A stretch of 64,000 nucleotides of DNA from Acidobacteriota bacterium (GCA_032124015.1 JAQBEH010000096.1:11027-75026); one strand, 5' to 3'. Positions 1-38,566 are shown, counted from the stretch's first letter. The notes: generated from the letters alone by a model not told the origin. Program-made: numbers and translations.

Positions 1-1838
1 CCGCATTGGTGAGCCAGGGACGGATTCGTCCCTTCCCACTTGAACGGGGGCGTATCGAAGATGCCGCGGAGCGAACGGATGTCCACGGGCCGCAGGCCGA
101 TCCCGTCGGCCTCGATGTCGAGCGTCAGACCGTTCAAGTGCCCTTCGGGGTGGCAGCTCCGGCACGAGAACTGCCGGCCGAAAGCAAAAGCCGCGCTGTT
201 GAAGCGCCGCTCGCCGCGGCGGGTTTCGGTGACGACTTCCGTTCCGCCGAGCGGGATCGTCCCCGCGACGGTGAATCCCGAGGTTTCGATGACGGTGATC
301 GCGTCGTCGAGGGTCGCCGCGACGTACGCAAACCGGCCGTCCGGGGAGAACGCGACGCTGCGCGGGTTGCGCCCCACCGGAATCCGTTTCACGAGAAACC
401 GCGCGCTCGTGCCCAGGCGGTACGGGAGGTCGTTGAGGCGGCGCTCGTCAGGGGTGTTCCGGAGGAACGTGAGAAGCGCCGCGACGTCCACGACGGCGAC
501 GCGGTCGGAGCCCGCGCTGGTGACGATCGCAAACTTGCCGTCTCCGGATACGGCGAGGCCGGTCGGGTCGGGGAACGAATCCGCCGGATCGTCGAGCAGC
601 ACTTGGTCCACCCGCCCGTCGGGCCAGAGCACGCCGAGGCCGTTCGTGACCACCCAGCCCTGCTGGAGTCGCGTCATCGGGACGAGATCGTTCGTGCGCA
701 TGAGGGTGAAGAGCACCACGTCGCGCCCGGGCACGAACGCGATCCCCTGGATCGTGTTCGCGTCGGGGACCGGAACGCGCGCCGTGACGCGTCCCTCGCG
801 CGGGTCCACGATCGTGATCTCCGAATGGTGGGGATCCCGGAACGGAGCCGGTTCCGGCATGAGGTTCGTCACGTAGAGCGCCTTGCCATCCGGACGCAGG
901 ACCGCGGCCCAGGGCCCTGTCCCCGCCGCGAGACGGGCAGTTTCCGCGAGCGTATGAGAGTCGAGGACCGAGATCGCGTTCTGACCGGTCTCCAGCACGA
1001 ACAGGCGCTCCCCCGCCGCGTCGGTGCTGACCCCGTGGGGCAAGGCTCCGACCTTGGCGGTTGCCGTCACCTTCCCGGAGGCGACGTCGATCGCGCTCAC
1101 GGTGTTCGATCGGCGGCTCGTCACGTAGAGGGTCCGGCCGTCGGGATGGACGGCGACGTCATGCGGCAGCGGGTCCACGGGAATCTCGGAGAGCACGCGG
1201 CGCCCGGCCGTATCCACGACGGCCACGCTTCCGCTCCGCTCGCACACGACGAACAGCCGGTCCCCCGCCGGGGAGACGGCCAGGCCCACGGGGTTCTTGT
1301 AGCGAGCGTCGTCCTCGGGCCGGCGGTACCCAGAGTCGAGAACCAGGTGGTGCGACGGCCGCGGCACGTGGCACGACTTGCAGAGGTCGACCTTCGGGGA
1401 AATGGCCAGCTTCGACTCGTCGAACGGGGGCGGCTCCCCCTTCCGTCCGGGAGCGGTGCGCATCGCGCGCGCGTGATCGCTGCCGGGTCCGTGGCAGGCC
1501 TCGCACTGCACGCCGTCCTCGATGCGAAACGTCGGATCCCACCAGCGCGGCCCTTCCTCGGCGGCGGTCGCGTGGCAACCGAGGCAGAGTTGGCTCTCGC
1601 GCGGAGGCGTGCCCGTTCCAGTGACGTACGCGATGCTGGCAGCTTCGGGACGGAGGAGCGCCCGGTACGACTTCGCGTGCCCCGTTCCGCCCTCGGCCGT
1701 GCAGACGTGCGCCGCGCGGTCGGCGTCGTGGCAAGAGACGCACACCTGCCGGCCGACGAAAGTCGTCGCCTCGAAGCCGCCCCCGGCCGCGAGCGCCGGG
1801 ACGAGCAGCAGGAAGAACGCGGGCACTTTCCAGCTCAC
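1..1838 (-). CDS. Multihaem c-type cytochrome fused to YVTN-type beta-propeller repeats and a C-terminal di-haem cytochrome c peroxidase (CCP/MauG)-like region; partial, the 3' end runs off the window
   Basis: Absent from the ORF track because the frame has no stop inside the window. My reverse translation from GTG 1838 gives MSWKVPAFFLLLVPALAAGGG (signal peptide). It then shows CVSCH, CLGCH, CEACH and CKSCH, repeated LYVT/..ISV(I)D propeller-like motifs, and near the window edge CRSCHPEGH...FKWEGTNPSLAHQC. The GTG overlaps the upstream stop (GTGA, 1835-1838). Confidence 0.75.
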   Translation of the reverse strand, partial: MSWKVPAFFLLLVPALAAGGGFEATTFVGRQVCVSCHDADRAAHVCTAEGGTGHAKSYRALLRPEAASIAYVTGTGTPPRESQLCLGCHATAAEEGPRWWDPTFRIEDGVQCEACHGPGSDHARAMRTAPGRKGEPPPFDESKLAISPKVDLCKSCHVPRPSHHLVLDSGYRRPEDDARYKNPVGLAVSPAGDRLFVVCERSGSVAVVDTAGRRVLSEIPVDPLPHDVAVHPDGRTLYVTSRRSNTVSAIDVASGKVTATAKVGALPHGVSTDAAGERLFVLETGQNAISVLDSHTLAETARLAAGTGPWAAVLRPDGKALYVTNLMPEPAPFRDPHHSEITIVDPREGRVTARVPVPDANTIQGIAFVPGRDVVLFTLMRTNDLVPMTRLQQGWVVTNGLGVLWPDGRVDQVLLDDPADSFPDPTGLAVSGDGKFAIVTSAGSDRVAVVDVAALLTFLRNTPDERRLNDLPYRLGTSARFLVKRIPVGRNPRSVAFSPDGRFAYVAATLDDAITVIETSGFTVAGTIPLGGTEVVTETRRGERRFNSAAFAFGRQFSCRSCHPEGHLNGLTLDIEADGIGLRPVDIRSLRGIFDTPPFKWEGTNPSLAHQC

Positions 1839-3340
1839 GGGGTCTTACCCGGCGCGGCCTCGGGGACGCCGACGGAACGGGGCGGACGTTGCAGCGCGAA
1901 CACATGACGGTTCCGCGGGGCGAGGTCGCGATCCTCGTGGCAACCGATGCATCCGCGCTTCTCGTTCGGCATCACCCATATCCAGCTCCGCATCGCGCGG
2001 ATCAGGTTCCCCTCGGCGTCGTACGTTTCGAGGCGCAGAGGGGTCCGCGGCGGGATCCGGAGATGAAACGAGCCGTCCGCCTCCACCGGGACCCGGCCGA
2101 GGACCAGCTCCCCCGCCGCTCCGTTTCCGGCCCGCACGACGCTCAGGGACGCGACCGGAGGACCGGAGTCTTCGCCATCTCCGAATTGCTGCGCGTCGAG
2201 GCAATACAACTCGCCGTAAGGGGCGTTGTCCTTGACGACGCTCGAGCGTCCCGCTTGAACGGGGCGCGGCACGACGGCGACCGGGTCGAGGTCCTCGAAT
2301 TCTCCGGCATCGAACACCGGTTCGAGCAGGAAGGCCGTGCGCGGATCGAGACGGTAGACGCCGTAGGACCCCGCGCGTTCCGGGCGCCACGCGACGAGCA
2401 GGCTTCCGTCCGGCAGCGGGGACGGCGAGTGGAAACGGCCGCCGGAAGACGCGCCGACCACGTTCCGTTCCGTCCGGCTCCGCGTGCTCGACACGGAAAC
2501 GAGGGCGCCGCCCAAGAGCGCATCGCGCGGGTCGGATTCCACGAAGAGCACCTCGCCGCCCGCCGACTCGCACGCCATCGTCTGGTTGACTCCAGACGGA
2601 GGTGCGGCGGTGAACGGGAAGACGTCGGCGCCGTCGGTGAAGACGGTGAAGAGGGCGGCTCCCGATCGTTTCTTGTCCCCGGTCCCGCTCGAGTAAACGA
2701 GGCGTCCGTCGCGAAGCAGCAGCGGATGGCTCGCCCCGAGAGGGTTGTAGGAGATTTGGCGAGAGGCCGAACCATCCAAGCGTACGGCGTGAAGGGTCGA
2801 TCTCGACGTGGACACGACGATCGCAGGCAGGGGCTCGTCGAGGTCCATCGTGTAGAGGACCGACGCGTAGATCGCCCGCGTGCAATCGCCGTCGCAACCG
2901 GTGACGAGGCGCTTGGCGCCGGTCGCGAGCTCCATCTCCCAGACCGAGAGCGGCTCGGCTGCCGTCCGACGCGCGACGAAGAGGAACCGAGCTGCATCGG
3001 CGGAGATCGATGGACGCCCGGCCGACACGAACCCGGTCGTGAGAACCGAGACGCGATCCCGCGCCTCCGAGCGATCGACGATGACGACCCTGCTCCCGGG
3101 GGGCAACTCGGCCTCTTCCCTAACCCCCGCGGGCAACCGGTGGGAGCCTGATGCCGGGATCTGCGTGAGGAGGATCGAAGGCGCGGCGCCGGAGCCGGGG
3201 CCGTCCGAAGCGAAGACCGGAAACGCGATCAACAGCGCGAGCAGCACCGCGCGCCTGGCCGGCGTGCTCCCGAGCCCGGATTCTTGTTTTGGCGGTCGCG
3301 TCACTGGCGTCTCGTGAAGTGAGAAGACCGATATATACAT
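1835..3340 (-). CDS. Secreted TolB-like beta-propeller protein with a single C-terminal CxxCH haem-binding motif
   Basis: Track ORF 1835..3679. I moved the start to ATG 3340 (MYISVF...), which precedes the signal-like ARRAVLLALLIAFPVFAS. The part of the ORF upstream of 3340 is Arg/Pro-rich shadow sequence. The C-terminus contains GCIGCHED. The stop overlaps the next start. Confidence 0.6.
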   Translation of the reverse strand: MYISVFSLHETPVTRPPKQESGLGSTPARRAVLLALLIAFPVFASDGPGSGAAPSILLTQIPASGSHRLPAGVREEAELPPGSRVVIVDRSEARDRVSVLTTGFVSAGRPSISADAARFLFVARRTAAEPLSVWEMELATGAKRLVTGCDGDCTRAIYASVLYTMDLDEPLPAIVVSTSRSTLHAVRLDGSASRQISYNPLGASHPLLLRDGRLVYSSGTGDKKRSGAALFTVFTDGADVFPFTAAPPSGVNQTMACESAGGEVLFVESDPRDALLGGALVSVSSTRSRTERNVVGASSGGRFHSPSPLPDGSLLVAWRPERAGSYGVYRLDPRTAFLLEPVFDAGEFEDLDPVAVVPRPVQAGRSSVVKDNAPYGELYCLDAQQFGDGEDSGPPVASLSVVRAGNGAAGELVLGRVPVEADGSFHLRIPPRTPLRLETYDAEGNLIRAMRSWIWVMPNEKRGCIGCHEDRDLAPRNRHVFALQRPPRSVGVPEAAPGKTP

Positions 3341-3467: not shown

Positions 3468-4406
3468 GTGCGTTCCGGGACGCTCGCCGCAACATCATTG
3501 ATCTTGGCGGCAACCTGCTCGCCGGCGATCTTCGCGTCGTCCGCCGCTGCCGAGACCGGGGAGGGACTTGTCCGCGGGGCTCGCATCCACGCCCGGTTCT
3601 GCGCCGCCTGCCACGGGGTAGGAGGGCGGGGCGACGGCCCCGGCGCCCGGGAGTTGAACCCGCGGCCGCGGGATTTCACCGCAGGGAAGTTTCGCTATCG
3701 CTCGACCGAGAGCGGCAGCCCTGCGCGCCGGTCGGACATCGAGCACGTGGTCCAAGTCGGGAGGGCGGGCACCGCGATGCCCGGGTTCGGAGGGTTGCTC
3801 TCAGAGGGCGAGATCGCGGATGTGGTCACCTTCATCCTCTCGCTTCGCACCCGCGTACCCTCCGATCAGGAGCCCGAGGCGTTCTCGCTTCCGCCGTTCC
3901 CGCCGGCAACGGCGGAACAACTCTCAGAGGGGAGGGCGCTGTTTCTAGTCGTCGGATGCTGGAAGTGCCACGGCACGGACGGCTCCGGACGCGGACCCTC
4001 CGCCCATGGGCTCAAAAACTACGAGGGGCGCCCGATCCGGCCCCGGGACTTCCGCTACGACCCGTTTCACGGTGGCCACAACTTCGACAACGTCGCGTTC
4101 GCTGTCCTTTCAGGACTCAGCGGAACGCCCATGCCCTCCAACGCGGAAATGCTGGTCGTGCCCCGCGAATCCATCGACGCGGTGATGGGGAGTCTCCCCG
4201 CTGCGGTCCGCCCGGAGGTCGAGGCGTTCCGGCTGGCCGCGCCGTCCTTGGAGGAAATCGCAGCCAAGGACGACACCGACTGGCTGCGGATCCGCGACCG
4301 GAATCTCGTCGCGCTCGCCCAGTACGTGCTCTCGCTGAGCCGGCGCGATCACTTCTTCTACCGGCTCTTCGGCGAGGATCCGGAGCTGGAAGCTCGCAAA
4401 CCATGA
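3468..4406 (+). CDS. Periplasmic dihaem cytochrome c
   Basis: Track ORF, 312 aa. GTG start preceded by GGGAGG. N-terminal signal peptide. Two CxxCH motifs (CAACH, CWKCH), each in a cytochrome c-like context (...MPGF..., ...GTPMP...). Confidence 0.85.
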   Translation: MRSGTLAATSLILAATCSPAIFASSAAAETGEGLVRGARIHARFCAACHGVGGRGDGPGARELNPRPRDFTAGKFRYRSTESGSPARRSDIEHVVQVGRAGTAMPGFGGLLSEGEIADVVTFILSLRTRVPSDQEPEAFSLPPFPPATAEQLSEGRALFLVVGCWKCHGTDGSGRGPSAHGLKNYEGRPIRPRDFRYDPFHGGHNFDNVAFAVLSGLSGTPMPSNAEMLVVPRESIDAVMGSLPAAVRPEVEAFRLAAPSLEEIAAKDDTDWLRIRDRNLVALAQYVLSLSRRDHFFYRLFGEDPELEARKP

Positions 4407-4921
4407 TGACCACGCGCCGGGCGATCCGGGCGGCGGGCGCTCTCCTCATCGTGGGAGCCGGCGCCGCCGCAGGTGCGCTCCTTCCCGCGGCGTCCCCCGT
4501 ACAGGAACGGCGGATCCGGATGACGGCCCGGCAGTACGCGTACGATCCCCCGGTCCTGCGCGTCAATCTGGGAGACACGGTGCGCCTTCGGATCCGATCC
4601 CTCGACGTGACCCACGGGTTCTATTTGGAGGCGTTCGACATCAGCGCCTCGATCATTCCCGACAGTCCGTATCTCGAGATTTCGCATCCGAGCCGGAAGG
4701 GCGAGCCCGCGGAGAAGGCGGAAGAGCTCGTTTTCGTCGCCGACAAGACCGGCAAGTTCCGTTTCCGCTGCTCCCGCGTTTGCGGAAACATGCACCCGTT
4801 CATGCAGGGAGAGCTCATCGTGGCCCCCAACCGGCTCGCGGGAGCCGGGATCGGCGCGTGCCTCGGGCTCCTTGCGGCGGCCGCATTCGTCGCGCTGCGA
4901 CGGGACTCCGGATCTCCATGA
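4403..4921 (+). CDS. Membrane-anchored CuA-type cupredoxin (cytochrome oxidase subunit II-like domain)
   Basis: In frame inside track ORF 3389..4921. ATG 4403 overlaps the upstream stop (ATGA). Hydrophobic segments at both termini. DVTHGF ... CSRVCGNMHPFM matches the H...C-x3-C-x3-H-x2-M CuA ligand pattern. Confidence 0.75.
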   Translation: MMTTRRAIRAAGALLIVGAGAAAGALLPAASPVQERRIRMTARQYAYDPPVLRVNLGDTVRLRIRSLDVTHGFYLEAFDISASIIPDSPYLEISHPSRKGEPAEKAEELVFVADKTGKFRFRCSRVCGNMHPFMQGELIVAPNRLAGAGIGACLGLLAAAAFVALRRDSGSP

Positions 4922-6333
4922 ACGGGCCGGAACCGTCCGGCCGGATCGACCTGCTGCGGGCCGTTCCGGGCCTCAAGTGGTTGCTCACGCGCCGCTGGTT
5001 CCAGTTCGCGGTGGTGCTGCCGAACCTGGCGTTTTTCTACCTCTTCATGATCGCGGGGGCGTTCGGATCGCCGGTGGGAAGCCGAAACATCATCATCATC
5101 TTCGTCTGGATCCTCTGGTGGTTCCTCCTCATCGCGGTCATGGTCCCTCTCGCCTCGCGGGTTTGGTGCACGGTCTGTCCGATCCCGTTTTTCGGCGAGT
5201 GGTATCAGCGCCGTGCGCTCGTTGGCGTGCGGGTGGGGAAGCCCGGCGTCGGAAGGAACCGGATGTGGGGACTCAACCGGCGTTGGCCCCGCGCCCTGTC
5301 GAACATCTGGCTCCAGAACTTCGGCTTCCTGCTTTTGTGCACCTTCAGCGTTCCCCTGCTCACCCGGCCCATCGTGAGCACGTTCGTCCTGGGCGGGCTC
5401 GTCGTTCTGGCGACGGTGCTGCACGTGATCTACCGGCAGCGGGCATTCTGCCGCTACGTCTGTCCGATCGGCGGCTTCCTGAGCCTCTACTCCATGTGCT
5501 CCATGATTGAGGTGAGATCGCGTGACCGGGAAACCTGCGACCAGTGCACGGACAAGTCCTGCCTGGCCGGCGGCGAGACCGGCTGGGGCTGCCCGTGGTA
5601 CGTCAATCCCTCGCACCTCGAACGGAATAACTACTGCGGTTTGTGCATGGAGTGCCTCAAGAGCTGCTCGCACGACAACATGACGATCCGGGCTCGGGCG
5701 TTCGGCTCCGAAACGGCGCTCAAAGGGTACGACGAGGCGTGGAAGGCCTTCATCATGATCGGGCTCGCCCTAGCGTACTCCGTCGCGCTGCTCGGACCCT
5801 GGGGAGTCGTCAAGGACTGGGCGAACCCCACCGAGAGCGGCAAGTGGGGCGGGTTCGCGCTGTACGCCGGCTCCCTCTGGACGCTGACTCTCGCGATCGT
5901 TCCGGCCGCGTTTTACGCCGCCGCCCGCTTGGGCCGCCGTTTCGCCGGAGTGCCGGGAGTGACGATGAAGGAGGCGTTCCTCGGATTCAGCGGTGTTCTC
6001 GTCCCGCTCGGGCTCGCCGCGTGGATCGCGTTCAGCATCCCGCTGATCCTTGTGAATGGTTCCTACGTTTTGAACGTCGTCTCGGACCCCTTGGGACGGG
6101 GATGGGATCTCTTGGGATCGGCGCACGCGCCCTGGGCGCCCTTCCATCCGGAGTATGCCTCGTACCCTCAGCTCGCCGTTCTGCTCGCAGGCCTGTTCTA
6201 CGCGCTTCGCAGCGGGTGGCGTTTCGCTAGCGAGCGCTTCGGCCACCACCGCGCGGCGGTGCGGGCCGTGGCACCCGTGGCGATCCTCGGCACCGCCGTC
6301 GCCGGCGGTTTTGTCTGGATGTTCCTGGGGTAG
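4918..6333 (+). CDS. Polytopic membrane 4Fe-4S protein (NapH/NosH/CcoG-like polyferredoxin)
   Basis: Track ORF 4780..6333, with the start moved to ATG 4918 (ATGA overlap with the upstream stop). Many TM segments. Cys clusters CTVCPIP, CRYVCPIGG, CDQCTDKSC...GCPW and CGLCMECLKSC. Confidence 0.8.
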   Translation: MNGPEPSGRIDLLRAVPGLKWLLTRRWFQFAVVLPNLAFFYLFMIAGAFGSPVGSRNIIIIFVWILWWFLLIAVMVPLASRVWCTVCPIPFFGEWYQRRALVGVRVGKPGVGRNRMWGLNRRWPRALSNIWLQNFGFLLLCTFSVPLLTRPIVSTFVLGGLVVLATVLHVIYRQRAFCRYVCPIGGFLSLYSMCSMIEVRSRDRETCDQCTDKSCLAGGETGWGCPWYVNPSHLERNNYCGLCMECLKSCSHDNMTIRARAFGSETALKGYDEAWKAFIMIGLALAYSVALLGPWGVVKDWANPTESGKWGGFALYAGSLWTLTLAIVPAAFYAAARLGRRFAGVPGVTMKEAFLGFSGVLVPLGLAAWIAFSIPLILVNGSYVLNVVSDPLGRGWDLLGSAHAPWAPFHPEYASYPQLAVLLAGLFYALRSGWRFASERFGHHRAAVRAVAPVAILGTAVAGGFVWMFLG

Positions 6334-6337
6334 TGCC

Positions 6338-6862
6338 ATGACCTCGTGGCGGATGGAGTCCGCAGCCACTCTCCTCGTTCTGGTGACCCTCATCGGTATT
6401 CCGCTGTGGGTCCGATCAGAAGAAGCCGCAGCCTCCCGTGTCCCCGATGAGCCGGGACTCCACGTGATCGAAATCACGGCGGTCGCCGCCGGCGGGATTT
6501 TCACCTTCGAGGACGTGGTCGGACACAACTACTGGCGCCTCACCCCAGCGGTCGCGCGTCCGGTGGTGCGCGTCGGCGAGAAGGTCCTCTTCCGCCTCCG
6601 GAGCTCCGACGTGATTCACGGCTTCTCCATTCCCGAGCTGCAGGTGGGCCCGATCGTGATCGAACCCGGGTACGTCACCGAGGTGCGATTCGAGCCGACG
6701 GAGGCCGGCGAGTTCCTGATCCAGTGCGTTTTCCGCTGCGGGGGGTGCCACGAGGAAATGTTCGCGGTTCTCGAGGTCCGCGGACCCAACGGAGAACCTC
6801 CTCCCGAGGACATGAAGTTGAAACTGCCCCCCCGGGTCAGGTGTCTCTTGCATCAGACCTGA
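6338..6862 (+). CDS. Membrane-anchored CuA-type cupredoxin, ba3-type CoxB-like
   Basis: In frame inside track ORF 6155..6862. ATG 6338 lies 4 nt after the upstream stop. N-terminal TM segment (SAATLLVLVTLIGIPLWV). SSDVIHGFSIPEL-x-CVFRCGGCHEEM is H-x35-C-x3-C-x3-H-x2-M, very like Thermus ba3 subunit II (DVIHGF...CNQYCGLGHQNM, from memory). Confidence 0.8.
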   Translation: MTSWRMESAATLLVLVTLIGIPLWVRSEEAAASRVPDEPGLHVIEITAVAAGGIFTFEDVVGHNYWRLTPAVARPVVRVGEKVLFRLRSSDVIHGFSIPELQVGPIVIEPGYVTEVRFEPTEAGEFLIQCVFRCGGCHEEMFAVLEVRGPNGEPPPEDMKLKLPPRVRCLLHQT

Positions 6863-6889
6863 GCCCCCCGCGGGGCGCGGAGAAAGAAG

Positions 6890-7600
6890 ATGAAGATCTC
6901 GCAGGTCGCCGGATGCGTCGTTGTCGCAGCTCTCACACTGGGTTCTCCCTCCCGGGCGGCCGGCCCGGACGGGGGGACGGTGCGCGGGACCCTGACGTAC
7001 AAGGGATCCGCTCCCAAGCCGCAGCCGATGGAGGTGGATCACGACCAGTCGTGCTGCGCGAAAGCACCGATCCTCCCCGAGACCCTCCTCGTCTCGGCGA
7101 AGGGCGGCGTGAGAAACGGTGTCGTCTGGCTCGAGGGCGTCAAGGGGGACAAGCCGTGGCCGTCTTTGGCGGGCATCCTCGACCAGCAGGCTTGCGTTTT
7201 CCTGCCCCACGTTCAGGTCGTGGCCAACGGGGCGACCGTGCAGTTCCTAAACGGCGATCCGATCATTCACAACGTCCACACCTGGCCCCGCACGAACGAG
7301 TCGATCAGCGTCTCCCAACTCGCCAAGGGGGCGTCACGGCCGATCAAGCGCACCTTCACCGCCCCCGACGAGATCAAGGTCACCTGCGACGTGCACAAGT
7401 GGATGAGCGCGTGGATCATCGTCCGTGACAACCCCTACTTCGCGGTGACCGGGGAGGACGGCGCCTTCGAGATCTCCGGCGTTCCGCCGGGCTCTTACAC
7501 GATGGTCGTCTGGCACGAGTCGCTCCAACGGGTCGAAAGAACCGTGAAGGTCGAGTCCGGAGCCGTGCGGGTCGAGGACGCAGAGTTGAAGAGCAAGTAG
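6890..7600 (+). CDS. Secreted blue-copper (plastocyanin-like) domain embedded in a carboxypeptidase-regulatory-like beta-sandwich
   Basis: Track ORF, 236 aa. Signal peptide. IIHNVH...CDVHKWM gives a His/Cys/His/Met type-1 Cu ligand pattern. GTVRGTLTYKG... and ...FEISGVPPGSYTMVVWHE are typical CarboxypepD_reg-like ends. Confidence 0.7.
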   Translation: MKISQVAGCVVVAALTLGSPSRAAGPDGGTVRGTLTYKGSAPKPQPMEVDHDQSCCAKAPILPETLLVSAKGGVRNGVVWLEGVKGDKPWPSLAGILDQQACVFLPHVQVVANGATVQFLNGDPIIHNVHTWPRTNESISVSQLAKGASRPIKRTFTAPDEIKVTCDVHKWMSAWIIVRDNPYFAVTGEDGAFEISGVPPGSYTMVVWHESLQRVERTVKVESGAVRVEDAELKSK

Positions 7601-7604: not shown

Positions 7605-7626
7605 CACGGTGGCCGCAAGCTTGTTG
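7605..7626. repeat. IS terminal inverted repeat (left): CACGGTGGCCGCAAGCTTGTTG
   Basis: Exact reverse complement of 8945-8966. Confidence 0.85.
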
Positions 7627-7690
7627 GCCAGCAACGGCGCATAGTTTTCCCGAGCAACGGACCGGTCGATATTTCGAGGTTGGAGTTGAA

Positions 7691-8848
7691 TTAGGCGGCG
7701 TGGCGTCGCACGAACCGGGGGAGAGCGGGCGTCCAGAGCTTCTGATAGACGCGCCGCGCGGACTCCGAAACCGGCTCCCGGCTCGGGAACAGCCGCCGGG
7801 CGAGAACGCGCTCGAATCGCCATCGCTTGTCGGTCAGCCCCAGCCGCATCGCCGGCGTGGTCCGGTCGGGTGCTCGTTCCGATCTCGCCTTGATGACGTT
7901 CTTCCAGACAGCCATCAGGCTCGCCCGGCCGATGATCGACTCGAGCCGCCTCCCGAAGGCGATCGTCTCCCGCTTGTGATCGGAGCACGTGTGGCGTAGC
8001 AGCTGGTGCAACTGGTCGATAGGGAACATCGCGAGGTCTCGTCTGACCGATTCGGGCGACCACGGCGTCCCCTTCGGGCCGCGTACGGGATTCGGATACA
8101 CCTGCAACACGACGTGAGGCGCTATCGTTTCGTCGCGCAGGGCGACCCTGTAGTCGGTCCTCCCGTCGACGCGGAGCACGAGCCGGTCGGACGGCAGAAG
8201 TTGAGGAATCAGGCCGCGAATCGAGCGCCTGATGCTCTCGACGTACGACCGGTTCACTCGTACCGTCGTCCCGTCTTCGGGCTTCCGGTCGGGACGGCGT
8301 CCGCTTCCCCGGTGCGGGGCGGGATCGATGTCGTACACGTACCGCGACTCGGCACCGACCGCGGTCCCGATTCCAAGGGCGCGGTCTTGGCGGCCGATGA
8401 AAGCCTCGAAATGGTCATGGACGACGGGCTCTGCCAGGGCGGGGAGGTCGGCGTTACACCGCGCATGGAAGAGGATCGCGTGCCGGCCGAGGCGCTCGGC
8501 CTGGCGGGTGACGCTCGTTTTCGCGCAGTGGAGCGAGCGGGCGAGCTGCCGGTGACAAGAGCACGCAGCAAGTCCGGACGCGATGGCGACGAGAAGCCCC
8601 GGCCGTTTGAGGTAGTAGGTGGTCGAGAACGTCTGGCGAGAGCAGGTGCGTTCGCAGTCGAGGCATAGGAAGCGCGGAATGCGCTTCGGAGAGCTCAAGG
8701 TGCGATAGGAGCCGCTGCGGTGGAACCCCTTTCCGCGAGATCGGTGGGCGGGGCACTCCGGCCATGGACAGAAGGGCGGCATGAACCGCGAGGGACGCAC
8801 GTTTTGGACGGACTGGTTCGGCCAGCGCATAACCAGCCGGAAGAGCAA
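7691..8848 (-). CDS. Transposase with an N-terminal zinc ribbon
   Basis: Track ORF, 385 aa. CPWPECP...RFLCLDCERTCSRQTFSTTYYLKR resembles the Zn-ribbon of IS1595/IS1-type transposases. It is the only sizeable ORF between the IRs. The exact start is uncertain (alternatives MRWPNQ, MPPFCPW). Confidence 0.75.
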   Translation of the reverse strand: MLFRLVMRWPNQSVQNVRPSRFMPPFCPWPECPAHRSRGKGFHRSGSYRTLSSPKRIPRFLCLDCERTCSRQTFSTTYYLKRPGLLVAIASGLAACSCHRQLARSLHCAKTSVTRQAERLGRHAILFHARCNADLPALAEPVVHDHFEAFIGRQDRALGIGTAVGAESRYVYDIDPAPHRGSGRRPDRKPEDGTTVRVNRSYVESIRRSIRGLIPQLLPSDRLVLRVDGRTDYRVALRDETIAPHVVLQVYPNPVRGPKGTPWSPESVRRDLAMFPIDQLHQLLRHTCSDHKRETIAFGRRLESIIGRASLMAVWKNVIKARSERAPDRTTPAMRLGLTDKRWRFERVLARRLFPSREPVSESARRVYQKLWTPALPRFVRRHAA

Positions 8849-8944
8849 GCGGAGGGCCGAACCGTAACGACGGAATGCCGCGGTTTCGTTGTCCGCCGAT
8901 TGTCCGTACCGTCCAGATGCGGACAGTAGGGACGCTCATTCAAT

Positions 8945-8966
8945 CAACAAGCTTGCGGCCACCGTG
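8945..8966. repeat. IS terminal inverted repeat (right): CAACAAGCTTGCGGCCACCGTG
   Basis: Exact reverse complement of 7605-7626. Confidence 0.85.
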
Positions 8967-8981: not shown

Positions 8982-10142
8982 TCAGAAGAAGAAGTGAGCC
9001 TCGAGTTCCGCCTGGCTGTCCGTCGCGCCGGTGACCTGCGGGGGGCCGTCGCCGCGACGCAGGAAAAACCGCAGCTGAACGAACGGGTAGGGGATGTACT
9101 CGACCCCCAGTGAGTCCCGTTGCTGCTGGTCGGTGAGAACCGACTGGTTCGGATCGATCCAGTCGTGCGTGTACTTGAGGTTCAACCCGCGCTGGATCAA
9201 GACGTCCACCTCGATGAAACCCGCAGCGGCCCGGGGGTCATCGCTGGAGTCGTCCACATTCGTCCTTCGCGCGTCGTACTCGGCGAGAAGCGAGAACCTG
9301 CCGAAGTTCAAGCTGCCCAGGATTCCGCCCCAGGCCGTCGTCGCCCGCTCGGCGTCGTCGTAGGCTGCGGTCAGCCCGATCGTCCCGTGGCGGAAGCGGC
9401 GGGCCGTCAGGAAAGTGAGCATCTTCCCGCTATCGGGGTCTCGCTGCCCCGGGCTTCCGTTGACGAGGGCCAATTGCGTCGACCAGTTACCGGGATCGAA
9501 CCCGATCTCGACACCGACGTCCGAGGCGGTAAAGGCAAAGCCCAGAGACTGCCGAATGAACGAGGCGTCGTCGGGGATCGCCCACCCGTAGGGCGGGAAG
9601 ATCCTTCCGGCCTTGACGTAGCCGCGCTGCCCGCCGAACGAAAAGAGCGCGAACAACTCCCTTGTGGATGAGCCGCCCAATCCGAACCTCTGGTCGATGT
9701 AGAGGCTGATTCGCTCCGGAATGATTCGAAACTGGCCGTACAACTGCGCCTCCGCCACTTCGAACGATGCGGCGTCGCCGGCCTGGTTCGAGCGGAGCGT
9801 GTAGTAACCGATGCGGGCGTCCCCTCCGATCGCGAATCGCGCCTGGGGATCGGCGGGCATCGGATACCCCTTCCCCTTGAAGGTCAGGAGATGCGCGGGG
9901 AGCGTGGCTTGCATGTAGAGGCTCCCGAATGGGGTGCGCAGCCCCCCTCCCACACGGTTGATGTGGCATTGGCCGCAACTGTGCCCGGTGCGGACCGCGA
10001 AAACCGGCTCGGCCCGCGCGACGGTCGTCACGGCCGGCCCGAGCGAGCCGAAGACGGCGATGGCGGTCCCGATCATCCCCTTCCAACCGGCGAGGTTGGC
10101 AACTCGCTCGAGGATCAAGGATTCGCTCCCCGCGTGATCCAC
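8982..10142 (-). CDS. Outer-membrane beta-barrel (porin-like) protein carrying an N-terminal CxxCH haem motif
   Basis: Track ORF, 386 aa. Alternating beta-strand-like pattern ending in ...ELEAHFFF (an aromatic C-terminus typical of OMPs). HSCGQCH lies just after a signal-like MIGTAIAVFGSLGPAVTTVARA. An alternative start at ATG 10076 would remove the overlap with the upstream gene. Confidence 0.7.
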   Translation of the reverse strand: MDHAGSESLILERVANLAGWKGMIGTAIAVFGSLGPAVTTVARAEPVFAVRTGHSCGQCHINRVGGGLRTPFGSLYMQATLPAHLLTFKGKGYPMPADPQARFAIGGDARIGYYTLRSNQAGDAASFEVAEAQLYGQFRIIPERISLYIDQRFGLGGSSTRELFALFSFGGQRGYVKAGRIFPPYGWAIPDDASFIRQSLGFAFTASDVGVEIGFDPGNWSTQLALVNGSPGQRDPDSGKMLTFLTARRFRHGTIGLTAAYDDAERATTAWGGILGSLNFGRFSLLAEYDARRTNVDDSSDDPRAAAGFIEVDVLIQRGLNLKYTHDWIDPNQSVLTDQQQRDSLGVEYIPYPFVQLRFFLRRGDGPPQVTGATDSQAELEAHFFF

Positions 10143-10645
10143 TCCCGGATCGCGTCGATCTCATCCTGGCCCAGCGGACGCATCGGGGAGGGGGGCATGA
10201 ACAGCCCCCCGGCACCTTGGGCTCCTTCGATCATCATGACGAGACAGGAGGCGTCCGGCTGGTACGGCTCAACCCGCGTGGCCCAGCCGCCGACCCCGTC
10301 GGAGCAGAAGAACGACTCGACGTTAACGAGCTCGGCGTAGGAGGTCTCGATCGAGTCGAGGCTCGGAACCGAACCACCGGAGCGGTGGCACGACGAGCAA
10401 ATCGGCCCGAAGACGTACTGTTGGATCGAGGCCAACGTCGGTTGAAGGCCTGTTGCGTTTTCGACCGTGCAGGTCGGGCTGCAGCCGTCCCCCGGCGCGA
10501 GGTTGCCGTCGTCGCACGCCTCCCCGAGGCTCTTGACACCGTCGCCGCAAATGCTCATGAGGGAGCCGTTCTCCGCGCAGCCCCACAAGGTGAGCCCGGC
10601 GGCCGCGGCGATCGCCAGGATCAACGTGCCCCGGAAGCGCGTCAC
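10115..10645 (-). CDS. Lipoprotein with a myxo-type cysteine-rich repeat and a PSCyt1-like cytochrome c domain
   Basis: Track ORF, 176 aa. Lipobox LTLWGC. CGDGVKSLGEACDDGNLAPGDGCSPTC is the Cys-rich repeat. FGPICSSCH...MPP...LGQDEIDAIREWITRGA is a PSCyt1-like haem domain. Confidence 0.75.
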   Translation of the reverse strand: MTRFRGTLILAIAAAAGLTLWGCAENGSLMSICGDGVKSLGEACDDGNLAPGDGCSPTCTVENATGLQPTLASIQQYVFGPICSSCHRSGGSVPSLDSIETSYAELVNVESFFCSDGVGGWATRVEPYQPDASCLVMMIEGAQGAGGLFMPPSPMRPLGQDEIDAIREWITRGANP

Positions 10646-10810: not shown

Positions 10811-12592
10811 GTGACCGGATTCCGCGGACGTCGTCACTGGATCGCCTTGGTTTCCCCTCTGGCCGGACTCGCAGCACTAATCTGGCTTTTGATCCGATCC
10901 GGAGCGAAGCCTAGCCGTCTCGCCTACCCTTGCCAGCGGGCCGCGCTCTCGGCGGCCTGGCTCGCATTCGCGGCTCCGGTCATCGCCGGCCTCGTCCTGC
11001 TCCGGCGCCGCCTGCGCATCGGCCCGTTCTCAGGAGTGGGATTGGCCTTCGCAGCGGTCGGCGCCGTTTGCAGCTTGGGCCTCTGGGGATACCTCTCATT
11101 CGCGCAAAGCGAAGACCCTCCCCCCGTTTTTGCGGCTCCGCTCGACTACCGTGCCGAGGTCTTCCACAAGGCCGACTGCCCCCGCGATCCGGTGGGCGAC
11201 CGCTTTCCCGGCCTCGACGACCTCGTCGAGATCATGGGCGGCGGTGGGCTGAAGTTTTTCCGCTCGGACACGTCGTCGCTCACCGCGGGCCCCAACGGCA
11301 TCCTCGCCGCGGACGACACCGTCCTCGTCAAGATCAACTACCAGTGGGGTCAACGCGGCGGGACGAACGCCGACCTGCTCTCCGGTCTGATCCGCCGGAT
11401 CGTCGAGCACCCCGACGGCTTCACGGGGGAGGTCGTGGTCTGCGAGAACGCGCAGTTCAACTCGACCGTGGGATTCGACCGCGCGGAGAACAACGCGGAG
11501 GACGTGCTGCTCTCACCGCACGACGTCGTCACCCACTTCAAGACCCTCGGGTACCGCGTGTCGCACCAGGATTGGACGTTGATGCGCTACGCGTCGGTGA
11601 CCGAGTATTCGACCGGTAACGTGAGCGACGGATACGTCCTGCTCCCGTACGATCCCACTCTGGCGGGGCGGCCGTCGTACCCGAAGTTCACGACCGAGTA
11701 CGGCACGCGGATCAGCTTCAAGCTCGGACTCTGGACCGCCTCGGGCGGGTACGATCGCAATCACCTGAAGGTCATCAACGTGCCGGTACTGAAATCGCAC
11801 CACAGCGCCTATGGCGCGACGGCGAGCGTGAAGCACTACATGGGCGTGGTGACGCGCGAGCTTTCCACCAACTCGCACTCGGCGATCGCCAACGGGCTCC
11901 TCGGAGCGGTGATCGGTGCCGTTGGTCCCGCCGACCTCAACATCGTGGACGCGATCTGGATCAACGCGAACCCGTACAGCGGCCCTTCGACGGACTACGC
12001 CGAGGCGACCCGCCGGGACGAGTTGGTGGCGAGCCTCGATCCGGTGGCGGCCGACATCTGGTCGGTGAAAAACATACTGATCCCCGGGTTCGTCTCGAAC
12101 GGGTATTCTCCGCCGTGGCCCGCGCCGAGCGCCGACCCGGACCTTCCCACGAGCGCCTTCAGGCGCTACATCGACGCCTCGATGAACCGGATCCTCGCCG
12201 CGGGATACAAGGTCACGAACAACCCGACGATGATCGATGAGATCGAAACCGCTCCACCCGGAGAGCCCGCAGACCCCGCCGGCGCGAATGAGTCGTTTCT
12301 GATCTCGAAGCAAGAGGGGGGAGCCTACGCGCTGACCTGGTCGCCGCCGATCCGCGGCGGCGCCGCCGACGAGTACGAGCTCTACAGCGCTCCCCTCCCC
12401 GGTCCCCGTCCCGGCGTGCCGCCGCACTGCGAGGCGGCGCTCGGGAGCGGCACTTCGGCGTTCCTTACCTCACTACCCGGCGGGATGGCCTTTTTGGTCG
12501 TCGGCAGGAACGCGGCCGGTGACGGATCCTTCGGCCACAACAGCGCGGGCTACGAGCGCCCGGGACCGGCGGTGGGAAGCCTCTGTCCTTAA
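10811..12592 (+). CDS. DUF362 domain protein with N-terminal TM segments and a C-terminal extension
   Basis: Track ORF, 593 aa, GTG start. VLVKINYQWG, VINVPVLKSHH..GATASVKHYMG and LNIVDAIW are DUF362-type motifs as I recall them. Confidence 0.75.
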   Translation: MTGFRGRRHWIALVSPLAGLAALIWLLIRSGAKPSRLAYPCQRAALSAAWLAFAAPVIAGLVLLRRRLRIGPFSGVGLAFAAVGAVCSLGLWGYLSFAQSEDPPPVFAAPLDYRAEVFHKADCPRDPVGDRFPGLDDLVEIMGGGGLKFFRSDTSSLTAGPNGILAADDTVLVKINYQWGQRGGTNADLLSGLIRRIVEHPDGFTGEVVVCENAQFNSTVGFDRAENNAEDVLLSPHDVVTHFKTLGYRVSHQDWTLMRYASVTEYSTGNVSDGYVLLPYDPTLAGRPSYPKFTTEYGTRISFKLGLWTASGGYDRNHLKVINVPVLKSHHSAYGATASVKHYMGVVTRELSTNSHSAIANGLLGAVIGAVGPADLNIVDAIWINANPYSGPSTDYAEATRRDELVASLDPVAADIWSVKNILIPGFVSNGYSPPWPAPSADPDLPTSAFRRYIDASMNRILAAGYKVTNNPTMIDEIETAPPGEPADPAGANESFLISKQEGGAYALTWSPPIRGGAADEYELYSAPLPGPRPGVPPHCEAALGSGTSAFLTSLPGGMAFLVVGRNAAGDGSFGHNSAGYERPGPAVGSLCP

Positions 12593-21819: not shown

Positions 21820-24129
21820 TCAGTCGGGACGCGGGGCAACCGAAGCGAGTTCCTTCGCGAACGTCTCCGGGTCGGTCGTCGGGAGCCGGCAGACACCGCG
21901 CTCGCATACGTAGGCGGTCGCCTTCCCCTTCGCCGCGACCTTGCCCTCGAGAAGGGGCATGCGTTTCACTTGGGCGTCAAGATCCGCTCCCTGAACCGCG
22001 ACCGCCAGAATCCGGTTAGGGACGAACGCCTTGCGCAGGCGCGCGAGGAACGGTTCCGCCTCCGCGCGCGACGACGGAGTCACGATCAGAATCTCTTTGG
22101 GAACTCCAACGCGGAAGTCGAGGGCGATCAGCATCTCGGACAGGGACAACGGCTGCCTCTTCAGCGTTCCGCCGAATGCCCGTAAGAGCCGATCGGCCTT
22201 GACGCGATAGCCGTCGTCGGTCGTCATCTCGCCGAGCCGAAGGAGGTTCATCAACGCGACGGAGTTCCCCGAGGGCTCGGCGCCGTCGTAGTCCGGCTTT
22301 TCTCTCGCCAGAAGTGTCTCGTGGCGGCCGCTCGTGGCGAAGTAGCCGCCGCCCTCGGCGTCCGCGAATCCCTCGTCGAGTACCTTTTGCAGGCCGATGG
22401 CGTCACCGAGGCGCTGCACGTTTCCCGTCGCTTCGTAGAGATCGAGCAGGGCCTGGATCATGAAGGCGTAATCGTCGAGGTATCCGTCGAGACGTCCCCG
22501 GCCGTCCTTGTAGCTGCGTAGGAGGCGGCCGTCGACCCGGAGTTTCGCCAGCACAAAATCGGCCGCGCGCGAGGCCCGGTGAATATCGTCCGCATCGTCC
22601 AAGACCATCCCACCCCTGGCGAACGCGGAGATCATCAGGCCGTTCCACGACGTCAGGATCTTGTCGTCCCGCAAGGGATGCGGCCGCTTGTCCCGTACGG
22701 CAAGAAGCGTTGGAGTTGCACCGGAGACGATACGCCGGAGCTGGTCAGGCGCGATCCCGAGCCGCCTTGCGATGTCTTCGGCGGAGCGTTCGAGGTGAAG
22801 AATGTTCCTCCGATCGAAGTTCCCTTCCGTGGTGACGCCGTACCAGGCGGCAACGGCGGGTGCCCGTTTCGGACCCAGTGCGGCCGCGAGCTCGGCCGGC
22901 GTCCACGTGAAGAACCAGCCCTCCTCGATTTCCCCTTCGGACGTCAAACTGTCGGCGTCCGTCGCCGAATAGAAGCCGCCCTCGGGTGCGGTCATCTCCC
23001 GCGCGACGTAGCCCAGGATGTCGCGGGCCACGTCAGCGAATTCCTGCCGGCCGGTCGCCTGATACCCCTCGAGATACACAATCGTAAGCAACGCGTTGTC
23101 GTAGAGCATCTTCTCGAAGTGCGGCACGAGCCAGACGGGGTCGGTCGCGTAGCGGTGAAATCCCCCGCCGATCTGGTCGTGAATCCCGCCTGCGGCCATC
23201 TTCTCGAGGGTGAGCGCGGCCATCCGGAGCGCTTCGGCTTCTCCGGTACGTTTGTACTGACGCAGGAGGAGGCGGATGGGCAGGCTGCTCGGGAACTTGG
23301 GAGCTCCCGCGGTGCCGCCGTTTGTCGCGTCGAAGCGCTGCTTCGAGGCGTTGAATGCCACGGACAGCGTTGCCGCGTTCGGGATGTCACCGGACGCCGA
23401 TCCGGTCAGCCGCCCCCGGATGCTCGTCGCGAGCCGCTCTCCTTCCGATGCGATCTTGTCGGGATCGGCAGCGTACTTGTCGGCGAGGACGCGGATGATC
23501 GTTGCGAACCCGGTGCGCGCGCCCCGATCGCCGTCACGCGCAGGGAAGTACGTTCCCCCGTAGAACGGCTTGCGGTCGGGCGTCAGCCACACCGTCATCG
23601 GCCATCCGCCACGCCCCGTGAGCGCCTGCACCGCGCTCATGTAGACCGCGTCGATGTCCGGCCGTTCTTCCCGATCGACTTTGATCACGATGTAGTGCTC
23701 GTTGAGGTAACGGGCGATCTCTTCATCTTCGAACGACTCGGCCTCCATGACGTGACACCAGTGGCACGTCGAGTAGCCGATGCTCAGCAGAACCGGACGG
23801 CCCAGACGCTTCGCGGTCTCGAACGCCTCGTCACCCCACGGGTACCAGTTGACCGGGTTGTGAGCGTGCTGGTTGAGGTACGGGCTCGACTCCAGGATGA
23901 GTCGATTCGTGTACGTCGGGCTTCCGTCCGGTTGGAGATGGTGGGTGCGAGGCTTGTACGCCGGTCCCTTCGCCGCCACGGCCTGCTTCAACTGCGCCTT
24001 GAGCTCCGGAGAAAACGACGGTGCCCCCGGGGGCCCTTCGACCGGGACCGGGGCCGTGTCCGATCCGGCCGCGCAGGCCGACGAAATCAAGAAGGCGACG
24101 AGACAGGATGCGGCCAGCGGGTGGTTCAC
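21820..24129 (-). CDS. Thioredoxin-fold plus (alpha/alpha)6-barrel protein (DUF255/YyaL-SSP411 family), predicted lipoprotein
   Basis: Track ORF 21820..24336. GTG 24129 overlaps the treY stop (GTGA) and gives [19 protein letters not shown] (lipobox-like). The N-terminal thioredoxin-like region contains [10 protein letters not shown]. Confidence 0.85.
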
Positions 24130-29410: not shown

Positions 29411-31230
29411 GAACCCTCCCGGTTCTGGGTGGAAAGAAAGACGGCGCAGGCGCGAGGTCCGACCTCCGCATGGGTGCCGGCGACGCCTAGGCCGCCCTCG
29501 CCGCCCCACCTGGGGTGGGCGGAGTCGAGGACGAGCCGCCAGGTCCCCTTGCCGAGCGGCACGGAGACCGCGGCCGGTCCGAAATTCAAAACGACGACGG
29601 AGCGCTCGGCGTTCCGCTCGCGGCGGAGCGCGATCGCTTCCGCGCCGGAGACGATTTCGGCGTCGAAGCCGAGGCGAGGGCCGGGGCCGAGCGCAGGCTC
29701 CTCCCGGCGGAGCGCGAGCAGGGCCTTGTGCCACTCGAACAGATTCCGCGCGCGCCCTGAGGCTGCCGCCTGCGGAGGGATCCGCGCGCTGTCGAAGGTC
29801 GCCTGGTCCTGGGGGTCGGGGAACGACCCCTCCGAGCCGAAGGCGGCGAATTCCTCGGCGCGCCCCTTCCTCACCGCCTCGACCAGAGCGCGATCGCCGT
29901 GGCTCACGAAGTAAGGAAACGGAGCGCTCTCGCCGTATTCCTCCCCCATGAAAAGGAGCGGCAGATACGGAGAGAGGATCGTCGCGGCCGCGACGACCTT
30001 CAGGATGTCGAAGGAGACGTGCGTCGAGAGCCGGTCCCCGTCCTTGCGGTTCCCCACCTGATCGTGGTTCTGCGCGAAGACGACGAAGCGGCGCGGATCG
30101 ACGTCGCGCGCGGGAGCGCCGTGACGCCTCCCGCGGTAGCCGGAGTGCGCGCCGTCCAGAACGAAGCCTTCGCGATAGGCCTTCTGCAACGGCTCGATCC
30201 CGCCGAAGTCGCGGTAGTACCCGCGCGATTCCCCGGTGACGAGGGCGTGGAGCGCGTGGTGGAAATCGTCGCACCACTGCCCGTCGAGCCCGAGGCCGCC
30301 CGCCCCGGTCGACCGCACGACCCTGGGGTCGTTGAGATCGCTCTCGGCGATGAGCCACACCTCCCGCCCCAGCCGGCCGGCACGTTCGCGCACCGTCTCG
30401 GCGAGCTCTTGGAGGAAGGGACGCGCGGAGGTATCCACGATGCCGTGGATCGCGTCGAGCCTCAGGCCGTCGACTCCGAAGGTCTCGATCCAAAACAACG
30501 CGCTCTCGATGAAGAAGCGGCGGACCTCATCGCTGCCGGCTCCGTCGAAGTTGATCGCTTCGCCCCACGGCGTCTTGTGATGCGCCGAAAAGTAAGGACC
30601 GAACTCCGCGAGGTAGTTCCCCTCCGGACCCAGGTGGTTGTAGACGACGTCGAGGACGACGGCGAGACCGAGCCGGTGGCACGCGGCGACGAACCGCTTC
30701 AAGGCCGCCGGCCCTCCGTAGGTGTTCTGAACGGCGAAGGGAAGAACGCCGTCGTACCCCCAGTTGCGTCCGCCAGGAAACTGCGCGACAGGCATCGGCT
30801 CGACCGCCGTGATGCCGAGCTCGCGAAGGTAAGGAAGGCGCGCGATCGCCGCATCGAGCGTGCCTTCGGGAGTGAACGTCCCGACGTGCAGCTCGTAGAA
30901 GACCGCCGTCTCCAGAGGGATCCCCCTCCAATCGCCCCGATCCGCCTCATGCGCCGAGGGATCGAACACGACCGAGGGCCCGTGGACCGTGTCGCGTTGG
31001 AGGCGCGAGGCCGGGTCGGGACGGAGCGGCCCGCCGTCGAGACGAAAGCCGTAGGCGGTTCCCTGCGGGACCGTATCCGCGACCGCCTCGAAGTGTCCCC
31101 GCGCGTCGCGCTCCATCGCGACGCGGCGCGCGGGCATTTGCAGGACGAGTTCCACGCGCTCGGCGCGCGGCGCCCAGACGAGAAACCGGCAGCGCCCGTC
31201 GGGGAGCGGGGTCGCTCCGAGTCTCGTCAC
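29407..31230 (-). CDS. treZ: Malto-oligosyltrehalose trehalohydrolase
   Basis: In frame in track ORF 29407..31545. GTG 31230 overlaps the glgB stop (GTGA). [21 protein letters not shown] and GLRLDA are GH13 motifs in a TreZ-like arrangement. Confidence 0.9.
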
Positions 31231-35200: not shown

Positions 35201-38550
<3,350 letters not shown>

Positions 38551-38566
38551 CCCTACCCTTTCCGCG

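Follow-up and report, generated by a model that had tools for sequence, protein, structure and literature searches.

A conserved gene module with two CuA cupredoxins, a NapH/NosR-type membrane protein and a Cyc2-type haem-porin: a candidate electron route without a haem-copper oxidase

CuA centres are the textbook entry ports of the haem-copper oxidases (HCO) and of N2O reductase (NosZ). What, then, do two of them do in an operon that encodes neither enzyme? The case arises in a 64 kb stretch of DNA from an Acidobacteriota bacterium (GCA_032124015.1, JAQBEH010000096.1:11027-75026; the window), in which five genes on the plus strand (g1-g5, 3468-7600) encode a dihaem cytochrome c, two CuA cupredoxins flanking a polytopic iron-sulfur (FeS) membrane protein, and a blue-copper protein. 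The answer argued here is that these genes probably form part of a self-contained electron route, made of a NapH/NosR-type hub, two CuA domains, cytochrome c, blue copper and a Cyc2 haem-porin and lacking an oxidase core, whichever way the electrons run. The more specific reading, an oxidase-independent respiratory module with outward electron flow from the inner membrane or cytoplasm to the cell surface, is put forward tentatively, at a little less than an even chance.

The operon is tightly packed. It opens with a GTG at 3468, the start of g1 (3468..4406), a periplasmic dihaem cytochrome c of 312 amino acids (aa), which shares an ATGA overlap at 4403-4406 with g2 (4403..4921), a membrane-tethered CuA cupredoxin of 172 aa. 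A second ATGA overlap, at 4918-4921, joins g2 to g3 (4918..6333), a polytopic NapH/NosR-type membrane protein of 471 aa. Its TAG stop (6331-6333) is separated by 4 nt from the ATG at 6338 of g4 (6338..6862), a CuA cupredoxin of 174 aa that has an N-terminal anchor and belongs to the COX2/ba3 subunit II type, and 27 nt lie between the TGA stop of g4 (6860-6862) and the ATG at 6890, preceded by a GGAG, of g5 (6890..7600), a secreted protein of 236 aa predicted to be a type-1 (blue) copper protein from its conserved H/C/H/M ligand set. Coordinates, overlaps and gaps are exactly those of the original prediction for this DNA, and an independent gene caller gives the same products (312, 172, 471, 174 and 236 aa) on contigs of 99.9%-identical metagenome-assembled genomes (MAGs). 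Both full CuA ligand sets and the four Cys clusters that it listed were found, as were two CXXCH motifs and a type-1 copper ligand set in line with its dihaem cytochrome and blue-copper protein, and the profile searches that it proposed (COX2, Cupredoxin_1, Fer4 and NapH/CcoG models) gave matches to COX2, Cupredoxin_1 and Fer4_5, a weak one to NapH and none to CcoG.

The first of the cupredoxins, g2, scores 27.6 bits with Pfam Cupredoxin_1 (cut-off 27) and 21.9 bits with COX2, which is borderline (cut-off 22). It consists of an N-terminal signal or anchor, a periplasmic cupredoxin domain with the motif DVTHGF...CSRVCGNMHPFM (CuA ligands H71, C123, C127, H131 and M134) and a C-terminal transmembrane (TM) helix. 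The H/C/C/H/M ligands are invariant in 65 homologs, and CSxTCGxxHPFM is present in 74/74 members of the g2 family. The second, g4, scores 32.3 bits with COX2 (cut-off 22) and 48.7 bits with the CoxB model TIGR02866; its motif is DVIHGF...CVFRCGGCHEEM (CuA ligands H94, C130, C134, H138 and M141), with H, C, C and H invariant in 72 homologs and the Met replaced by Leu in a Terriglobia subgroup. A likeness to ba3 subunit II had been remarked on for g4, and it extends to both proteins: the closest PDB structures of g4, like those of g2 (E 2e-9), are Thermus ba3 subunit II CuA domains. A six-frame scan of the window finds Cx3Cx3Hx2M only twice, in g2 and in g4, and this, together with the invariance of the ligands in the homologs of both proteins, rules out a chance occurrence. 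On profile score and ligand set g2 and g4 thus classify in silico as CuA-type cupredoxins, each with the complete H...C-x3-C-x3-H-x2-M set that had been claimed.

The closest solved relatives, the ba3/caa3 subunits II, have the identical CuA ligand spacing, and caa3 subunit IIc is mimicked by fusions of g4 to cytochrome c. Of 75 g4 homologs in which a CuA-type Cx3Cx3Hx2[M/L/Q] loop is present (the motif-bearing homologs), 46 carry such a fused domain. The differences from these subunits are that no subunit I is found nearby, that g2 has a C-terminal TM helix and in some lineages is fused to g3, and that g4 often has a third Cys in its CuA loop, which creates a CXXCH. PmoD has its CuA at a homodimer interface, lacks the canonical H...Cx3Cx3Hx2M of a single chain and is encoded in pmo/amo operons, whereas g2 and g4 have this set within one chain. 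Like g2 and g4, PmoD is a CuA-type cupredoxin that belongs to neither HCO nor NosZ (PMC6189053).

Two features of the g4 family deserve mention in their own right. With its third Cys the CuA loop of the window protein (window 6725-6760, residues 130-141) reads at the same time as a haem-attachment motif; this residue (C-T-x-x-C-G-x-C-H-x-x-M) is kept in 46/75 motif-bearing homologs, but the solved subunit II relatives aligned with g2 and g4 do not have it in their CuA loops. A short subgroup from Terriglobia/Acidobacteria (about 160 aa; L041, L051-L053, L060, L067, L071-L073, L075 and L083) is devoid of the cytochrome c domain and has Leu for the axial Met in a CWQVCSPEHxxL loop, which would be expected to raise the CuA potential.

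The gene set is not confined to this genome. At least 2,892 homologs of g3 were found at E<=1e-3, 55-92% identical over the full length and annotated just as 'polyferredoxin' or '4Fe-4S binding protein', so that the operon, rather than a one-off arrangement, is the local variant of a widespread module. In metagenomes of soils, groundwater, sediments and ferruginous lakes it is represented by thousands of sequences. When a single genome of each species was scanned, 230 g3 relatives were obtained, and the best 80 of these 230 loci come from about 15 phyla: Acidobacteriota, Binatia, Planctomycetota, Myxococcota, Gemmatimonadota, FCPU426, Marinimicrobia, Fidelibacterota, Ignavibacteria/Kapabacteria, Armatimonadota, Desulfobacterota, Verrucomicrobiota, Omnitrophota, Lindowbacteria and others. 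One host, Desulfoluna limicola ASN36 (locus L061), is a cultured strain.

The neighbourhood survey that had been suggested was carried out on 84 sequences, the window and 83 loci (one pair being the same contig), in which open reading frames (ORFs) were called, searched and clustered. The core order is conserved in about 80 loci and usually runs g5, g2, an optional cytoplasmic protein of 163 aa, g3 and g4. A g2-type cupredoxin is present in 83/84 sequences, a g4-type cupredoxin in 82/84 and a g5-type protein in 65/84, the last usually directly upstream of g2. In most loci g4 is a protein of about 320 aa, CuA cupredoxin plus cytochrome c domain; where it is short, as in the window, a separate dihaem cytochrome of the g1 type is often present. 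The window g1 has two haem motifs, CAACH and CWKCH, and matches Pfam Cytochrom_C over two stretches (67.2 bits); proteins of its type occur in 21/84 sequences, mostly where g4 is unfused, and by this distribution g1 appears to replace the cytochrome c domain fused to g4 in most relatives. The g5 ligands H127, C166, H169 and M172 are invariant in 71 homologs. No Pfam cupredoxin model matches the window g5, which is hit by CarboxypepD_reg (32.0 bits) and fn3_3 (28.2 bits), in keeping with a CarboxypepD_reg-like beta-sandwich; among the related proteins Copper-bind is faint in L003 and plastocyanin weak in L061.

The optional 163 aa protein is of the erythrin/rubrerythrin type, has intact di-iron ligands (E, ExxH, E, ExxH) and no signal peptide, and lies between g2 and g3 in 47/84 sequences. 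A histidine kinase and a sigma-54 regulator accompany the module in 38-39/84, and arsenite-oxidase-like (AioAB-like) genes are near it in 6-7 loci. Copper-site assembly factors, namely Sco1, NosL (7 loci) and a TlpA-like domain, recur nearby or as fusions, which argues for genuine CuA sites. Downstream of the module at L061 (12408-15007) are genes for a permease of the MacB/FtsX type and a copper chaperone of the NosL family, although the locus has no nos genes.

Could the two subunit II-like proteins serve an oxidase or a NosZ encoded elsewhere in the genome, the module being an accessory for electron supply or maturation and the cupredoxins spare or regulatory subunit II paralogues? Precedent exists in NosR/NosGH, which serve NosZ (PMC5928378), and databases annotate both cupredoxins as oxidase subunit 2. 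Neither an HCO subunit I nor a NosZ was found in the window by Pfam on the main ORFs and a six-frame motif scan, which bears out the absence of a catalytic subunit reported for the operon and its 64 kb surroundings. The same holds for about 6.5 kb to the left of the window, read from a near-identical MAG contig, which encode a Ser/Thr kinase, two unknown proteins and a solute-binding protein; with 56 kb to the right of the operon also covered, no oxidase or nos cluster emerged just beyond the region originally described. Nor did a motif scan of ORFs of at least 350 aa, with clustering, find either enzyme within 10 kb in any of the 84 sequences, or Pfam annotation in six contigs. For this genome the search thus covered the window and 6.5 kb to its left, which leaves the accessory role some room, but the core stands alone in L001, a g2::g3 fusion (below) points to g3 as the partner of g2, and joint conservation with Cyc2 and blue copper suggests a chain that is complete in itself. 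We consider the accessory role quite improbable. A lactonase-type propeller present in seven loci was considered as a split 'L-NosZ' and rejected, as it matches 6-phosphogluconolactonase-like models and gives no NosZ match; with the L-NosZ model the propeller proteins nearby reach 70.8 bits against 700.

The protein encoded between the two cupredoxins, g3, had been described as polytopic and NapH-like with four Cys clusters. It matches Fer4_5 (27.3 bits), and all four clusters were located (CTVCP, CRYVCP, Cx2Cx4C...CP and Cx2Cx2Cx3C). About nine TM helices are predicted, with CX2CP and CX3CP at the cytoplasmic ends of TM2 and TM4, a cytoplasmic domain for two [4Fe-4S] clusters and a family-specific C-terminal domain of five TM helices with strongly conserved periplasmic loops. 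Mean column identity among homologs is 67%, the Cys motifs are invariant in 27 homologs, and the most conserved loops, TRP, KDWAN..E and NGSY...SDPxGWGWD, are all periplasmic. The AlphaFold2 (AF2) model has a pLDDT of 75, and no PDB match was obtained by sequence or by fold. When the C-terminal half was searched against 1.84 billion representative proteins, its domain was found in this family only, in 367 representatives and always at the C-terminus.

The architecture of NapH is present in g3: four TM helices and, on the cytoplasmic side, a pair of Cys-Pro motifs and a pair of [4Fe-4S] motifs. The topology of g3 is fixed by the AF2 helices and by natural fusions. Assignment to the named families was rejected on score and domain content. 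Against the NapH/MauN model TIGR02163 g3 reaches 45.6 bits, far below the cut-off of 213.05, and against PRK09477 33.7 against 234; the NosR model NF046105 gives 16.6 bits (cut-off 1000), with no FMN_bind domain by Pfam; and no CcoG model (CcoG/RdxA/FixG) is among the NCBIfam matches at E<=0.01. In NapGH and NosGH a four-helix unit with two Cys-Pro motifs is likewise followed by two cytoplasmic [4Fe-4S] clusters, and quinol electrons are proposed to go to a periplasmic redox partner, as they are here for g3. The extra five-helix C-terminal domain sets g3 apart from NapH, as do its proposed partner, a CuA cupredoxin where NapH has the poly-FeS protein NapG, and the lack of nap or nos genes nearby. 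NosR shares the membrane and FeS unit and serves a periplasmic protein containing CuA, and NosL occurs in some of the module loci; unlike g3, NosR has a periplasmic FMN-binding domain, and no NosZ is near g3.

Natural fusions tie g3 to a CuA domain on one side of the membrane and to a pyridine nucleotide module on the other. In six Desulfobacterota/Verrucomicrobiota loci g2 is fused to the N-terminus of g3 (cupredoxin, one TM helix, g3). As the fused CuA domain must be periplasmic, the N-terminus of g3 itself, both Cys-Pro motifs and the FeS domain are cytoplasmic. Independently of these fusions, several long g3 members contain a Fer4_20 plus Pyr_redox_2 module (GltD/NfnB-like, NAD(P)H/FAD/2x[4Fe-4S]) inserted in the cytoplasmic loop just ahead of g3's own cluster motifs. 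In about eight Terriglobia loci the GltD-like protein is encoded on its own behind g4, with Rieske and cytochrome b genes next to follow; such genes come after the module in 7-8 loci. Further fusions in long members comprise an N-terminal TlpA-like thioredoxin domain and extra cupredoxins.

The original prediction had offered two functions, an electron conduit and a machine for copper reduction or handling. The second would make g3 a CcoG-like cupric reductase, or the whole module a periplasmic Cu(I)/Cu(II) redox buffer for homeostasis or delivery. Cys-Pro motifs with two [4Fe-4S] clusters are indeed common to g3 and the CcoG/NapH superfamily, many copper proteins and chaperones (Sco1, NosL) are nearby, and one locus has a MerR/MerT neighbour. 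Little else supports it. The C-terminal domains of g3 and CcoG differ, the latter is encoded with the cbb3 assembly genes ccoGHIS and g3 with electron carriers rather than transporters, and the lack of a CcoG match is joined by that of a P-type ATPase, CopC/D or Cus among the recurrent neighbours. Full CuA and type-1 ligand sets, a fused cytochrome c and Cyc2 are hallmarks of electron transfer, and the chaperones are accounted for by CuA assembly; a role in copper handling is therefore highly improbable.

The component that would extend the chain to the outer membrane is a haem-porin. According to Keffer et al. 2021 (PMC8406198) Cyc2 proteins have an N-terminal AxPxFAR[Q/K][T/Y] followed by CXXCH and PxL, at least 365 aa, a single haem and a 16-strand barrel like that of OprO/P, OprO being the structure earlier named as the nearest fold of Cyc2. 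A porin of about 450 aa with the full motif, e.g. AIPAFARKYQTSCVTCHTVYPQL, and an outer-membrane-barrel-like end occurs in 50/84 sequences and in 36 of the 53 loci with at least 5 kb on both sides, usually directly upstream of g5. In the window a Cyc2-like fused cytochrome-porin is encoded on the minus strand at 8982..10142 (from the called start 8982-10118, 378 aa), convergent with the operon. It has a signal peptide, a AEPVFAVRTGHSCGQCH haem segment, a 16-strand beta-barrel and a C-terminal FFF. With 378-386 aa, one CXXCH and 16 strands in the AF2 model it agrees with the Cyc2 family in size, haem number and barrel; its motif is degenerate (AEPVFAVRT...CGQCH, no PxL) and is a partial match. 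Profile alignment with the Cyc2-motif family of the related loci (hhalign) gives a probability of 99.0% and E 5.7e-18 over 360 columns, and Foldseek of the model returns porins, with OprO (4rjw) at rank 2 (E 1.3e-12). On these profile and model comparisons the window haem-porin is homologous to the Cyc2-motif porins of the related loci.

In content the module resembles the rus locus of Acidithiobacillus ferrooxidans, where outer-membrane Cyc2 is likewise co-encoded with a dihaem cytochrome c, a blue-copper protein, a CuA subunit II and a small cupredoxin. In the module a NapH-like FeS membrane protein takes the place of the CoxACD core, two CuA proteins are encoded, and the hosts are mostly neutrophilic, uncultured and often anaerobic. 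The parts thus come from known superfamilies and, at the level of gene content, the assembly matches none of the systems compared.

In the mechanism that we propose g3 would be the hub in the membrane, and the CuA domain of g2 would be tethered directly on it. The unit that g3 has in common with NapH, NosR and RdhC consists of the first four helices, the two Cys-Pro motifs and the pair of [4Fe-4S] clusters on the cytoplasmic side. Electrons would enter g3 from quinol and/or a cytoplasmic donor (in some relatives NAD(P)H via the GltD-like flavoprotein) and would probably pass through the membrane on a bound quinone, which would take them up from the FeS clusters on the cytoplasmic side and release them on the periplasmic side, below CuA. 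A bound quinone is the simplest crossing because g3 is without conserved haem or metal ligands in the membrane, and this step would translocate protons and so constitute a proton-motive redox loop. From CuA electrons would run downhill, over a periplasmic relay of g4 CuA, cytochrome c (g1 here, fused to g4 elsewhere) and blue-copper g5, to a high-potential extracellular or periplasmic acceptor, with the Cyc2-type haem-porin as the outer-membrane crossing. Gene content, ligand sets, synteny, the fusions with the topology that they imply and the lack of an HCO or NosZ partner nearby are observed; that the proteins form a physical complex and hold copper is inferred, and so are the quinone step, the direction in which electrons run and their acceptor.

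Outward flow is favoured over inward flow. With NAD(P)H at about -320 mV and CuA at about +250 mV, transfer from NAD(P)H or quinol to CuA is energetically favourable. The NAD(P)H module fused to g3 usually feeds electrons in, strict anaerobes, Desulfoluna limicola among them, carry the module, and the relatives of the g3 membrane module point the same way: NapH, NosR and RdhC have all been proposed to pass quinol electrons to periplasmic partners, NosR to the CuA enzyme NosZ (PMC5928378). Of the two functions originally offered, the quinol- or cytoplasm-to-periplasm conduit with CuA as a wire is thus the one favoured, by the synteny of about 80 loci, by both kinds of fusion and by the copper-assembly genes.

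A number of observations weigh against this reading. The homolog alignment of g3 has no conserved His or other obvious intramembrane cofactor site, which makes the transmembrane electron step a conjecture; the window's own g3 has neither the GltD-like module nor an erythrin partner; and the scheme does not explain the erythrin found in 47/84 sequences. At neutral pH Fe(III) minerals are poorly reduced by copper centres of high potential, which makes such minerals weak candidates for the outward acceptor. Three features fit electrons moving inwards, namely Cyc2, a demonstrated Fe(II) oxidase with a midpoint potential (Em) of about +208 mV (PMC8406198), the CuA plus cytochrome c architecture of g4, which is that of caa3 subunit II where electrons go inwards, and the electron-donating arsenite-oxidase-like genes.

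The same module could accordingly be read in the opposite direction, with electrons from Cyc2 (Fe(II)) or another periplasmic oxidase passing through blue copper, cytochrome c and CuA to a g2/g3 sink, the final acceptor being quinone or, via the FeS clusters, a cytoplasmic one such as erythrin reducing O2 or H2O2. Besides the three features just named, the parallel with the rus order (cyc2-cyc1-cup-coxBACD-rus) and the intact di-iron erythrin between g2 and g3 speak for it. However, transfer from CuA to a ferredoxin-type [4Fe-4S] cluster, to NAD(P)+ or to menaquinone would be strongly uphill and against the membrane potential, g3 has neither pump-like features nor haems, and the GltD-like module would have to work against its usual direction. 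Many hosts are strict anaerobes and the window has no erythrin gene; a plausible acceptor would be at hand only if erythrin reduces O2 or H2O2 and the clusters are of unusually high potential. Inward flow is in our judgement unlikely.

The haem-porin is translationally coupled to a gene for a putative lipoprotein monohaem cytochrome c of 176 aa with a Cys-rich repeat (10115..10645, minus strand; myxo_disulf_rpt 49.8 bits, DUF4215 30.5 bits), whose cytochrome c match is weak. This protein co-occurs with the window-type haem-porin in four sequences, and the pair adjoins the module also in L004, L005 and L016. Next to the lipoprotein gene lies one for a DUF362 protein of 593 aa with N-terminal TM helices (10811-12592), whose position is shared by L004 and the near-identical MAGs. 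The haem-porin is separated from g5 by an insertion-sequence-like element (7605-8966) with perfect 22-nt terminal inverted repeats (7605-7626 / 8945-8966); its ORF (7691-8848, minus strand) encodes 385 aa with a Cys-rich N-terminus and has no Pfam or NCBIfam match. The element is present in the 99.9%-identical MAGs, and no homolog of its ORF was detected in the 85%-related locus L004.

On the divergent side of the operon a hydrazine-synthase-like pair (3-3247, minus strand) encodes an alpha-like protein of 470 aa, of which the window copy is one residue off the indexed MAG copies, and a protein of 797 aa with multihaem, beta-propeller and dihaem parts, like a fused beta-gamma subunit. The matches lie well below the family cut-offs, at 193.7 bits for the 797 aa protein where 1250 is required. 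Outside anammox bacteria, hzs-like genes of this kind have been reported before (PMC10732223). The pair was considered as the terminal enzyme of the module and rejected, being present in just 3-7/84 sequences, and probably lies outside the conserved module. The neighbourhood had been described as a dedicated redox locus including both this pair and the haem-porin; the description stands for the latter, given its family's presence at 36 of 53 loci, and probably fails for the former.

Farther along, 24126-40546 and 49511-51793 form a large glycogen/trehalose block. It encodes several members of the alpha-amylase family, GlgE, a TreS-Mak-like fusion and a trehalose-6-phosphate synthase/phosphatase fusion, and has genes for mechanosensitive channels, Na+/H+ exchangers and universal stress proteins on its flanks, so that the region resembles an island for osmotic stress. 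On the minus strand at 53787-59781 two HdrA/MvhD-like flavo-iron-sulfur proteins (FlpD with Fer4; Pyr_redox_2 plus Fer4_20 plus FlpD) are encoded near a pyruvate:ferredoxin oxidoreductase subunit. Their domain content hints at an anaerobic, possibly electron-bifurcating metabolism of the host.

No published description of this gene set was found in open-access full text; mention elsewhere is possible. The broadest claim that could be made, a new class of respiratory complex in the form of a CuA-containing, HCO-free inner-membrane enzyme of about 15 phyla connecting NAD(P)H/quinol and Cyc2 in either direction, is possible but doubtful. In its outward form it would be a quinone-mediated proton-motive redox loop from NAD(P)H/quinol to Cyc2, and in its inward form the missing inner-membrane sink for Fe(II) oxidation by Cyc2 in organisms without a linked oxidase. 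If true, CuA would have a third place in biology, next to the oxidases and N2O reductase. The natural fusions are also relevant to the long-standing question of how cytoplasmic FeS clusters are linked to periplasmic partners by NapH/NosR-type proteins, and Desulfoluna limicola, as a cultured host, makes the module experimentally approachable.

Cyc2 is used, e.g. in FeGenie, as a marker of neutrophilic iron oxidation. Because the module is co-encoded with Cyc2, the reading of Cyc2 matches in Acidobacteriota, Planctomycetota, Marinimicrobia, Ignavibacteria and Desulfobacterota would be affected, and Cyc2 in these lineages may not by itself be a sign of aerobic iron oxidation.

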